Assembly: GCA_951406725.2 (NCBI GenBank)
Contig: OX597822.1
Span: forward strand, 33,852,001-33,916,000
Length of the DNA: 64,000 nt
Direction of reading: 5' to 3'
From: Octopus vulgaris
Lineage: Eukaryota
Positions 52,847 to 60,021 of the stretch are shown here, in pieces. Each line of letters starts with the position of its first letter. Position 1 is the stretch's first letter. The notes under the pieces were generated by a model that made no database searches, had not been told where the DNA came from, and saw only the letters and a program-made list of their open reading frames with translations. The translations under genes were made by a program, and so were the position numbers.

Positions 52847-53243
52847 CCTGTTGTCACCAGGATATGCAAGGTCAATCATCATCATCATCATCATCATTAT
52901 TATTATTGTTATTATTATTATTATTATTATTATTATTATTATTATTATTATTATTATTATTATTATTATTATTATTATTATTATTATTATTATTATTATT
53001 ATTATTATTCCTTCCGACGCCGTTAGACGTACGTGAATCAGCTCCGTGAATTTGACACCAATTTCATTGGAAATCTATTAATAGGTTTGAATATTTTTTA
53101 ATATTTCTGTAGCCAAACCGACCGGCTTCTTTGCGGAGCTCGTCGGTTGGGCGAAATTTTGCCCCATTCGGGGTGAAATTGCGTTTGAAAATTTTGAACA
53201 TTTGACATTTTTCAACATTTTGAATATTACAACAAAAAAAAAC

Positions 53244-55120
53244 ATGGCTATGAAGCGAACAGTTGGCTGTTCCTTCCTTCAAGATACACTCCCTCCGCAA
53301 ACACGCACAACTCGTACAAAACACCCACTTCACGCCTTAAAAGGCAACAAAGATTCTCCTTCCGAACCGCAGAGCACGCGCTCGGTTCAAAAGGAAAATG
53401 CAAGTCATGACGTCGCGTTCGACGTAATTCTTGATTTTCCCCTCTGCCTTCACCCAATGCTTTGGTAAGGAAGGAGGAGGGAGAAAAAACAAATACAAAA
53501 ATCATCACAAACATTGACACGGAAATAAAAGAAAAAACTTCCAACAATTTTGCTTCTGCTGCGAAGCAAATTTCGGAGGAAGTTAAGATAACTCTAGAAG
53601 ATGTGAAAAGAGCGAAGGAATTGTTAAGGAAGGATGGCAATGGTATCTTCCTCAATACTCCACAAGAGGTGATTGAAAGCACCAACAAGCAAACAATAAT
53701 TTACAAAGTTTTCGACAGAAAACTAAAAAGAATAACAAATGCCACACCCCAACAGTTGGAGATAGCTCTAAAGCCCATTTGGGCCCAAAAGAGCTACGTA
53801 ACCAAGGGGAAGCGTTTTGGAACCGTGGAGGTTCGCTTCCCAACAGAGGAGCTTGCAAGGGCGAACGCCATTTCGCCCTTGCAAACTGAGAATTTGTTAC
53901 TAATTCCAACCCACCTCGGGCGAAGAGTTACAAAAATAAAAATCGACCTCGTCCCCCCTGAATTAAATATGTCATGGCTGGTGGCAGCTGTCCTCTATGA
54001 TATAGAGGACACTACCACCATTCTAGATGTCAGGAGAGTGAGGGCGAAAAACTGGTTGGGGATGGGAGTGCTGCTTCTTGCGCAAATTCAGCAAGAGAAT
54101 ATAAGTAAAGTCCCTGATTTCGTAAGTTTGCCGGACGGCACTAGGCTAAACGTTGCTGTGGAGGGGCGAAAGCCAAAATGCTTTCTCTGCAGCAGCGAAA
54201 GCCACTTAAAGAGGGACTGTCCCATTCACAAAAAGAGGATGGAGGCTTTCAGCAAGAGGCAGCAGCAACAACAACAACAACAACAACAACAACAACAACA
54301 CAAGCAACAACAACAGAAACAACAAAAACAGCAAGAAACACCAAAGGCTGCCACACCACCAACACCATCACCAACACCAGCACCAAGACGAGCAACACCA
54401 CCTCCAACAACAACAACCACCACCAAACCAACACCGACAACCACCACCAAACCAACACCGACACCAGTACCTCGAAGGTCGACAGCAGCGACATCAACAG
54501 TAACAGGAGCAGCGGCACCACCGATACCGGTGGAACCAGAAACTTTTCGTCCTGCTACTGAAGCAGACCCCTCAACCATTCCTTTGCCGGATGAAGAGAT
54601 CTCGGATTGTGCGAGCTCCGATTCCAACAAAGGAGAATGGAATATAGTACCTCCAAAAAAGAAAAGGAGGAAAAAACAAAAAGATTTAAAGGGGAAGCAC
54701 GAACAAACAGTACTTCCCAACATCAACAACAACATCAACAACAACACACACTCACAACAACAAACAACAACAACAACACTTTCGACACCACTACTGCCAC
54801 TACCACAGACACAAACAAACACAGACACAATTATAGACACAATTACATCAATAAACACAAAGAACCAAAAACTAGTGGAGTACTTAAAAAACAAAACTAG
54901 TACAAATATAACCGATTTCATCATACCAACACAAAACACACCACCAGCACACATTCTCACAATAAAAATAAATGCAAAAACATATGATGAAATCAAACAA
55001 ATATTCCCTAACGATGTGGGATCGCTAGGGAAAAGTTTCTCGAAGAAACTTTATAAAAACATTGTGGAAGCACCCGTGCAAAAGCACAAGGGAGCCACCC
55101 CCCACCACCAACAACAGTAA
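53244..55120 (+). CDS. LINE ORF1p (gag-like, one CCHC zinc knuckle), with an apparent 1-nt frameshift near 53435
   Basis: The long frame 53435-55120 encodes CFLCSSESHLKRDC (CX2CX4HX4C, 54179-54220), polyQ, a P/T-rich region and basic PPKKKRRKK. The ATG at 53244 opens a different frame that overlaps the start of the long frame. Confidence 0.85.
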
Positions 55121-55163
55121 GTAGAGCCTTTTTTTTCTCCTTTTTTTCCCCCTACTTTGAGAC

Positions 55164-58100: not shown

Positions 58101-58598
58101 TCTCTCGCCTGGCAGTGCTACCGAGGGGCTCTGCCTGTTCGAGATAAACTCTACCGGCACGGAAGTGCCGTCAGCCGGGCCTGCCCGAGGTGTTGCCAGG
58201 ACGACGAAACCGTTCTGCACGCACTCGTCCAGTGCCCGAGTATTGCTGAAATATGGGTTTATGTCGAACAGCTACTGTCACGTGTAGGACGGATCCGACT
58301 ATCGGCCGAATCCATAGTGAAGATTGCCCCGCCGACCTCCTTTAACAAGGAGGGCGAGGCCGTTTTCTTGTGCCTTGTGGCTGTGGCGAAAGAGGTGGTG
58401 TGGTGGACTCGTTTGAAAGGGCTAAAGTCAGACACTTTCCTCTTTGGTCAAGGCCTCATCAACTTTTTCAAGTTTCACTTGAAAAGGAAGATGAGGTTAG
58501 AGAGGAAAGTGCTGTCCGATAGCAAGTTTTATGAAAGGTGGGTGAATTGTGCGAGACTGGCCTGTATAAATGGACCAGTTCTCAGGTTTCGCCTGTGA
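55164..58598 (+). CDS. LINE ORF2p: AP-endonuclease + reverse transcriptase + C-terminal zinc finger (1144 aa)
   Basis: APE motifs LNVRGL, AISET, AYAP, YLDRV, TDH. L1/Tx1 linker GPGYWKLN. RT motifs SPGLDGLP, RPITLLN, LDQSKAFDRV, VRQGCPLS, YADD, KLLGV. Post-RT GGLG. C-terminal CPRC-x8-H-x4-C. The frame is uninterrupted. Confidence 0.97.
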   Translation: MANLRIGCLNVRGLGSPWKQGHLLNDLRFHDVDVAAISETRLSHPQELAALFGGYEIFLSPCRPGAGGGGTAVLFRKGLDLKIRTVFLDPEGKLVVLDVDGSDGGAFRLLAAYAPTGAGQSDYFKRLEVFLGTSRTLVLVGVWNAVLDERFDRVGRGASVRRGGGCKSLANLLGRFQLSDRFRLDNPNVPMWTWTNRIGSSRSYLDRVFCRPADKDSVGCPHFHLVEYTDHKLVICTVDLDRLHRQGPGYWKLNASLTACKAYRDRISLLVKRALTGAIINNNWWFALKRAIKVESIRYSKTLAIERRKRERDLVKKLDEALDTGIATDVLAARLALDQHFDAKHEGCVVRAKARSLSGEGTRAARWARVAEAKRGNRATIRSLVDQNGREVTQPKQMCTVLQRHFAQLFGTSGGTDTNGTDFGVYLDGLPQLSDSEAECCEGPISAWEVQEAMKSCTRGRSPGLDGLPYELYFSMPDLFADLLANVYCNWQQNGRIPAFVCRGVVALLKKDPNKGDVIGNFRPITLLNAELKILAKVLAKRLALVVDKLVGGTQTCAVPTRSIHDNLHLMRYIIERVGNDAGAGGALINLDQSKAFDRVDHQYLAAVLKAAGFGPVFRGWIAALYSNICSVIRVNGHLSEPFDISRSVRQGCPLSSLLYILTLEPLLRKLEALRGIPRDLGGGNSVSAYADDVTVVVSSHRHIGLIGETLNQYEAVTGAKINAEKSVGLQLGTWRGKPMPSNSVVGRWTDGPVKLLGVWFGPDLQVDKNWEEVTSRVARLTQKWAERKLSLKGRAEVANAYIASVIYYRLTVVPCPDRWLAKLVRLLFDFLWKGQVPLVRRSICCQRPLNGGLGMPWLLLRRHALRLRHLKRFLDGEQVWSSFVRRDFPQLVSLTELQTWIKRRPRKGAWHLECRQALSALHQAGNAVGYSSTLAFYRGLVEEKCDDVLGETLGVEDDELSGLFGRTFGPGPMDNFQRSLAWQCYRGALPVRDKLYRHGSAVSRACPRCCQDDETVLHALVQCPSIAEIWVYVEQLLSRVGRIRLSAESIVKIAPPTSFNKEGEAVFLCLVAVAKEVVWWTRLKGLKSDTFLFGQGLINFFKFHLKRKMRLERKVLSDSKFYERWVNCARLACINGPVLRFRL

Positions 58599-60021
58599 TT
58601 TCAAAGAAAAAGGTAATGTAAAAGGAGAAGAAAGGGGACTCTCTACACCCCCTTTTTTTGACCAGGCTCCCGTTGGCTTTTGTAGGGTTTTTTCCACCGG
58701 GAACATTTCGAGACGTCTCCCCCTTTTGGGAGTTTTTCATTGTTTTAATAATCATTGTTTTAAAGTTTTTTTTACACGGATTTTTTAACAAACGGACAAA
58801 ACCCTTTGTAACCTTTCGTCCTGTCCTGTCCCTTTATGTAATCATGCCTGTCAGCCCTTGTGGCCAATAAAAAAGAATTGATTATTATTATTATTATTAT
58901 TATTATTATTATTATTATTATTATTATTATTATTATTATTATTATTATTATTATTATTATTATTATCATTATTATTATTATTATTATTATTAGCTTAATA
59001 TTTTCAACAGTTTTGTGTGTAGCGCTCTCTATTGGGAATGCCTAACTCCGTTTCTGTTCAATCATACATCGTATTTGTTTCGTTGTTTCCTATGTTATTT
59101 TAGTCTTTCCTCTCTTGTACAGCATAGGAACAATATGAGTGTTATATTTCGTCGACTGGTGTTCGTATTTTGTTTATCTTGTGTAATTGCTGTTGTACGT
59201 ATTTTGTGCCCTGACATTAGCTGTATGGGTTGTGTTTTATTAATGGGTGGTAACTGAATAAAATGTGAGCTATTGGTCTTATAGTATCGGGTATTGATTA
59301 TGTAAAAGTACATGTGTGTTATTTTTTCGAGTGGGAACTGTGTACAACAGAAATTCCCAACTTTGCTACAAGAGTGTATTTGATTAGGAGCGGCGACAGA
59401 GAAGGAAGGCATATTCCTAATAAAAATCGTTCCATATGTTAAAAACTAACTCGTAAAAATAACTAGGTGCCACGAAGCTCACGAAGAACTATATTATTCT
59501 GCATATATTAATTTAACCCTTCAGATATATGACTAAGAAGTGTATTTTCATTCCATTTGCATTGACGACATATATGCGTGTCTCTGAAATCAGTGCTCTT
59601 TTGTCAATCATAACAAAATCTAGGAATTGCCAGGATTCGTGTGTAGATCTGTGGATATCAGTGACTAAGAATATTCCATATTTTGATAAAATAATAAATG
59701 AGAGGTAGAAACCAAAATATCAATGAATTTTGTTCAATGTTTTCTCTTTTTAACTCTTCAATTTACATTTATTTTCATGCACTGAATCAATATCTTGTTT
59801 TGAGTTTAACTTGTTAACCCATGTTACAGCATGTAGTTTACTGTTAGAAAAACTAAATAGCTTGTAGAAAATTGATATTTCATTTTCATATGTAATACTA
59901 CTTAACTTGTCTTGTATCGAACCGGGAACATGGTGATTGCAAAACAAACTTCTTAACTGTTCAGCCACCCTTCAACCAGTACTAAGCGATACTGGAATAG
60001 TAACAGTATTATATAAATAGC

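Follow-up and report, generated by a model that had tools for sequence, protein, structure and literature searches.

The window examined here is a 64,000-nucleotide stretch of the Octopus vulgaris genome (assembly GCA_951406725.2, contig OX597822.1, positions 33,852,001 to 33,916,000, forward strand) that contains a long interspersed nuclear element (LINE) with two open reading frames (ORFs), lying within an ATT microsatellite. In agreement with the original prediction made from this sequence, the complete two-ORF element has long (ATT)n directly at both ends, namely (ATT)38 and (ATT)37, and terminates in a polyadenylation-signal-like AATAAA at 58866–58871, 9 nt before the element end, with no poly(A) tail. 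The predicted start at 52895 had to be moved: the LINE proper begins at 53010, and 52896–53009 is ATT tract. Tract boundaries were set by reading the sequence and by Tandem Repeats Finder (TRF). The (ATT)38 tract is 98% pure with a single GTT unit, and a few ATC units lie upstream of it; the (ATT)37 tract holds one ATC unit, and ATT is in sense orientation on both sides. We consider the element to be one member of a young family of L1/Tx1-type LINEs whose insertions go into pre-existing (ATT)n with ATT on the sense strand, likely by an endonuclease nick in the AAT strand combined with pairing of the RNA 3′ end to that strand.

The first base after the ATT tract, where the 5′ untranslated region (UTR) starts, is identical in most full-length copies. 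In ORF1, a zf-CCHC match (E 0.075–0.085) falls under the Pfam cut-off, and the CX2CX4HX4C pattern is visible in the translation. ORF2 matches the Pfam domains Exo_endo_phos, RVT_1 and zf-RVT, corresponding to an apurinic/apyrimidinic-type endonuclease (APE), a reverse transcriptase (RT) and a C-terminal zinc finger. A search for a stable fold in the 3′ UTR found none (z −0.11).

Table. Coordinates of the element and its flanking repeat tracts in the window
Feature	Position	Strand	Evidence or remark
5′ (ATT)38 tract, left part of target microsatellite	52896–53009	+	sequence, TRF
LINE proper, two ORFs	53010–58880	+	
5′ UTR	53010–53243	+	70–99.6% identity across subfamilies
ORF1, ~620 aa in open copies	53244–55120	+	CCHC knuckle, Gln/Thr/Pro-rich linker
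ORF2, 1144 aa	55164–58598	+	APE endonuclease, reverse transcriptase, C-terminal zinc finger
Endonuclease catalytic Asp position, Val here	55587–55589	+	GDWN → GVWN
3′ UTR, ends in conserved CCCTTGTGGCC-AATAAA motif	58599–58880	+	
3′ (ATT)37 tract, right part of target	58881–58992	+	sequence, TRF

The evidence for a target comes from the junctions of 111 insertions, comprising the 39 best matches and 78 taken from the first 100 3′-end matches in genome order, with six in common; later members of tandem arrays were mostly omitted, as were the last few rows. A 5′ junction was scored as ATT if it carried an in-phase ATT run of 9 nt or more. Such a run is present in 44 of 46 full-length copies (18/20 in the genome-order sample) and in 33 of 62 5′-truncated copies (29/57), and is absent from two inverted copies and one copy at an assembly gap. 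Because a random position carries an ATT run at only 1.1% per strand in the window (2.3% in the flanks), this flanking goes far beyond chance across the family, and the excess has a binomial p of roughly 1e-32 to 1e-37. Truncated copies test for a target more cleanly, since tandem spacers make up many of the 5′ flanks of full-length copies. At the other end, ATT follows 109 of the 111 insertions, no poly(A) was found at any of the 111 copies, and genome-wide ATTATTAT lies within 14 nt of 258 of 266 forward-strand 3′ ends; the reverse-strand count, artificially raised by multiple matching, was set aside. Both flanks exceed the 20% share of one sequence type that serves as a rule for target specificity (PMC4494074). 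The prediction of an (ATT)n-targeting family is thus borne out at the junctions, and the outcome that would have spoken against it, with most truncated copies flanked by something other than ATT, is not what we see given the 1–2% background.

Empty paralogues were sought for 112 sites, and at 15 of these both flanks match one other place. An ATT-containing tract lies between the same flanks in the empty copy at ten of the 15 (L035, L051, L052, L057, L068, L091, L093, L107, L133 and L139), while the other five are uninformative or without ATT. The rejoined flanks of these ten sites rebuild repeats already holding ATT, which indicates that ATT is the insertion target and not only a tail. At five sites without ATT at the 5′ junction, homologues of the flank also run into ATT, namely at L107 and L126 (7/8 each), L129 (14/21), L106 (23/41) and L149 (30/68), and for this reason these five look like ATT sites that lost target bases; at L107, some 14 bases found immediately ahead of the ATT run in the empty repeat are missing. 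An empty-allele test of L020 on sequencing runs met high-copy repeats in both flanks. Many targets are supplied by the tails of SINE-like (short interspersed nuclear element-like) repeats and of earlier copies. Within the window, SINE-like units of 181–184 bp occur in tandem pairs (9363–9704, 20004–20375 and 41340–41703), and the ATT tails of such repeats are frequent LINE insertion sites. SINE-like repeats with a motif resembling the LINE 3′ end, CCCCTTGTGGGCAATAAAG, and no ATT tract (~9674–9700 in the window), may be an older relative or else a non-autonomous partner; motifs of this type also occur at L062, L100, L108, L129, L130 and L135.

In the 2.8 Gb genome searched, the 24-mer at the 3′ end has 494 exact matches, and homologues at 54–71% are also found in Argonauta hians. 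Ten close full-length copies diverge by 0.1–0.7%, pointing to a young and recently active family. ORF2 is open in 15 of 44 full-length-type copies and both ORFs in two of 44. Identity across 39 full-length copies is 96–99.8% in the RT region and falls to 70–75% in the 5′ UTR and the N-terminal half of ORF1; this conservation of the RT region alongside a diverging 5′ part suggests that subfamilies have exchanged 5′ modules repeatedly. In a comparison of window 53010–54200 with L041, L048, L102, L152 and L154, the 5′ part is 70–90% and ORF2 96–99% identical. Perhaps such swapping was helped by mixed tandem arrays. Head-to-tail arrays are common, with up to nine 3′ ends about 5.87 kb apart on C4, and arrays with short ATT spacers lie at C4:93799508–93841680 and on contigs C47 and C50. 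The spacers measure 15–36 nt in 28 junction strings (some possibly counted twice), and 15 or 18 nt in 17 of the 28.

The copy in the window is probably dead. A C-run near 53440 shifts the frame of its ORF1, and it alone reads GVWN where 43 of 44 full-length-type copies read GDWN, a catalytic Asp kept in 82 of 84 aligned homologues; the judgement stands unless these are assembly errors, which each of the two could be. The expectation of a near-intact element therefore holds for the complete two-ORF layout and fails for the frameshifted ORF1 and the altered catalytic residue, and recent activity applies to the family and probably not to this copy. A Protein Data Bank (PDB) search with the window copy's endonuclease alone returned nothing at E 0.001. 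Contigs from four sequencing runs cover the 3′ part of the element, and transcript ends are not readable from such contigs.

Sister L1/Tx1-type families in the same genome, related to the ATT family at 71% identity in ORF2, 65–67% in the endonuclease and 78–80% in the RT, target a different repeat. These families (L294–L363) end in (TATC)n in 20 of 20 copies, and their motif matches 10,217 genome ends. Their truncated 5′ junctions carry TATC in 15 of 20 cases and ATT in none, and TATC is found at none of 111 ATT-family junctions. Ends of this TATC lineage, 10,217 in all, precede ATT at only 12 places, about 10 of them independent, with no sign of having founded an ATT-flanked expansion; some TATC-lineage ends adjoin (TA)n or ATT directly, without a TATC unit. 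A target switch in three ATT-flanked copies of the TATC lineage was considered and rejected, as their common downstream flanks mark them as segmental duplicates. Likewise, three apparent ATT-type ends before TATC proved to have TATC-lineage tails, two matching that lineage best and one without a match.

Two further groups bear on the same repeat. A young single-ORF LINE with an RT, a zinc finger and a restriction-like motif, which we take from these motifs to be Dong/R4-like, has AAT at 14 of 19 truncated 5′ junctions (ATT at 0/19) and at 34 of 35 3′ ends; the Dong/R4-like LINE, unrelated to the L1/Tx1-type one, uses one repeat with it on opposite strands. It is represented at L007:1–1100 (C9, 57.00 Mb) and L185–L234, with 853 first-look candidates. 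An older lineage, at about 50–60% amino acid identity to the ATT family, has ATT or ATC at all seven complete ends among the 14 listed, and ATT near the start of protein similarity in at least five of 25 loci.

Taken together, copies of the ATT family display a repeat and strand preference, a fixed orientation and 3′ end, no poly(A), tandem arrays, and stable separation from their TATC sisters. To account for this, we propose that the endonuclease would nick the AAT strand at a T/A step, because 3′ flanks start with ATT and full-length 5′ flanks end with ATT. Transcripts would read past the AAUAAA into a few AUU units, which could anneal to the nicked AAT strand so that reverse transcription skips a poly(A) tail. 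The 5′ end would then be joined by microhomology, visible by eye at several truncation points, often with a loss of target bases that may explain truncated copies without 5′ ATT. In this proposal the choice between ATT and TATC is probably encoded mainly in the protein, outside the classic hairpin, with help from RNA pairing. The best candidate for the determinant would be the loop after YAP, equivalent to the position of L1 Asn118, a residue that touches the major groove (PMC8565326). This loop reads YAPTGAG in the ATT family, also in one readable copy of the old ATT lineage, and YAPSLTG or YAPPLTG in the TATC families.

Several observations weigh against this reading. Strict 5′ ATT is lacking in 29 of 62 truncated copies, some of them boundary errors in diverged subfamilies, and even under a relaxed criterion seven of 23 young truncated copies have none. 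Among the copies lacking it, L031, L137, L141 and L143 have no ATT-bearing paralogue. The 5′ flank is (TTC)n in two copies, both with ATT on the 3′ side, and TTAGGG-like in a third. Target-site duplications are not readable within pure repeats, and no duplicated interruption was found in 108 copies. The hairpin loop, the usual specificity element, is of L1 length and near-identical in the two groups of families (WTWTNRIGSSRSYLD in the ATT family; WTWTNRVGSSRSYLD, WTWSNRSGSSRSYLD or WTWSNRIGSSRSYLD in the TATC families), and is for that reason unlikely to decide between the repeats. The predicted microsatellite specificity of the APE itself is likewise putative because the TATC-targeting sisters carry this same loop. 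Finally, the correlation of the YAP loop with an ATT target depends on a single old copy, itself degenerate. As separate observations, the TTAGGG-like or (TTC)n 5′ flanks that face an ATT 3′ flank belong to L099, L123 and L070, for which compound repeats or relaxed second-strand joining are the alternatives, and apparent target-site duplications were set aside as tandem-array artefacts.

Could the ATT flanks arise with no specificity at all? Copies might pile up in microsatellite-rich, gene-poor DNA, or a 3′ ATT tail might be duplicated at the 5′ end. ATT tracts are indeed abundant, more so in the flanks than in the window, and about half of the truncated copies lack strict 5′ ATT. This explanation is nevertheless very improbable and already largely refuted by the strand asymmetry (ATT at 33 of 62 truncated junctions, opposite-strand AAT at one), by dinucleotide repeats at 0/62 of these junctions against a 6.9% background, by the ATT in empty paralogues, and by two other LINE families in the genome that each keep their own repeat or strand. 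Guidance by the ORF1 protein or by an ATT-bound host factor, instead of the endonuclease or RNA, seems equally remote. ORF1p-guided localization has been proposed for R1Bm/SART1 (PMC1919474), but subfamilies whose ORF1 N-terminal halves are only 70–75% identical keep the target, with ORF2 96–99% identical, and this persistence points to ORF2 or the 3′ end as the seat of target choice.

A tentative alternative that deserves more weight is that the sisters have in common a relaxed TpA nicker and that pairing of the read-through RNA repeat (AUU or UAUC) sets the target, so that specificity is inherited from the site of the source copy. It would account for the nearly unchanged hairpin, for the TAT/ATA contained in both targets, for the strict orientation, for the lack of poly(A) in 111 copies with AATAAA so near the end, and for the TATC-lineage ends that adjoin (TA)n or ATT. 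On the other side, several subfamilies keep their targets stably, the endonucleases are just 65–67% identical, which leaves scope for change in the protein, and TATC-lineage copies that landed in ATT show no visible spread as ATT-targeters, a weak test given that most are truncated. We favor a mainly protein-encoded choice helped by RNA pairing and regard a mainly RNA-encoded one as less probable.

Regarding classification, a PDB search gave human L1 ORF2p as the best match (E 5.7e-52, 180 bits; R2, 84 bits). ORF1 followed by an ORF2 with an N-terminal APE, an RT and a C-terminal zinc finger places the element among the L1-group LINEs, and its two ORFs and N-terminal APE separate it from Dong/R4 elements, defined by a single ORF with a C-terminal restriction-like endonuclease (RLE). 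The ATT target does not match the (TC)n or (TTC)n of the Kibi/Koshi lineage. ORF2 aligns with two U2-inserted Keno-like metagenome elements at 464 and 388 bits, against 180 bits for human L1; U2 small nuclear RNA (snRNA) is the target of Keno. In metagenome data, LINE tails enter snRNA at L264:4675–4885, L266:5815–5977 and L268:9202–9356, two of them U2 and one U1. In a quick tree of 55 RT rows, which include neither mammalian L1 nor any Tx1 element identified by name, the ATT family and its TATC relatives are sisters (SH-aLRT, the Shimodaira–Hasegawa-like approximate likelihood ratio test, 88), and they fall with the two Keno-like elements and fish elements in a 47-row clade (97). The old ATT lineage lies outside both families within a clade of 13 rows (100), Argonauta among them, a placement which suggests that ATT is the older target, although the old rows are degenerate and the tree a quick one. 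A CCHC zinc knuckle in ORF1 is a feature of the Tx1 clade, and cluster look-ups for relatives returned no Tx1-named reference. Of the predicted Tx1 label, then, the L1-group APE assignment and the proximity to Keno-like elements stand; strict membership is likely, by virtue of that proximity.

The value of these data lies chiefly in the ATT/TATC sister pair and its opposite-strand Dong/R4-like partner, and less in the window copy. With endonucleases 65–67% identical, the same hairpin, different repeats and about 0.1% cross-over, the pair makes the determinant testable. It is possible, though doubtful, that octopus Tx1-type LINEs switch between ATT and TATC without a change of hairpin, through the RNA 3′ repeat or one short loop, while a Dong/R4-like element occupies the opposite strand of the ATT repeat. 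If true, this would provide a naturally occurring means of directing an APE retrotransposon to new targets, and two unrelated nucleases would divide one microsatellite by strand. The data also add ATT to the known APE targets and show an APE and an RLE-like element using one repeat on opposite strands. The lead for genome engineering is probably modest, the target being multicopy. Elsewhere in the window, an AT-rich block at 22000–26000 (GC skew +0.33/+0.36) has mirror-like 11- and 23-bp tandem repeats (22508–22684 and 25087–25279) and may be a long inverted-repeat element.

Microsatellite targeting by APE-type retrotransposons has been called poorly understood (PMC3812793), and targets are described as endonuclease-determined for Tx1L and TRAS1/SART1 (PMC1950540, PMC1919474). 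Neither an ATT-specific APE element nor a target analysis for octopus was found in the portions of the literature covered (including PMC13295347 and PMC10294476), and Repbase may list such a family. Thirteen recently active L1-Tx1 and five Dong-R4 families are tabulated for O. vulgaris, which makes it probable that repeat libraries already include such families; the text available with that table holds no target analysis (PMC13282606).

Keno and Xenopus Tx1L have the same domain layout as the ATT family, but their targets are genes or transposons rather than a microsatellite. The Tx1L endonuclease reportedly shows target-specific cleavage in vitro. Its hairpin has 11 residues, in contrast to the L1-length hairpin of the ATT family, and grafting it onto L1 did not transfer specificity (PMC1950540). 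Human L1 is alike in that all catalytic motifs align and the hairpin is equally long; the ATT family differs from it in its missing poly(A) tail, repeat-specific insertion and CCHC-type ORF1. Comparable by description are the microsatellite-specific Tx1 families Kibi (TC)n, Koshi (TTC)n and crocodilian (TTCC/TTTC)n, likewise two-ORF L1/Tx1-group APE elements, whose repeats are pyrimidine tracts whereas ours is (ATT)n in a mollusc (PMC4494074). Other microsatellite targets in the literature are AC/ACAY (Waldo, Mino) and TAA (Dong). Dong, of the R4 clade, inserts specifically into (TAA)n in silkworm, mosquito and snail (PMC3812793); it uses the same microsatellite as the ATT family but differs in clade and nuclease class, R4 being an RLE clade (PMC4640811). 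The Dong/R4-like LINE of this genome has AAT on its sense strand where the ATT family has ATT, and the two RTs are about 24% identical.

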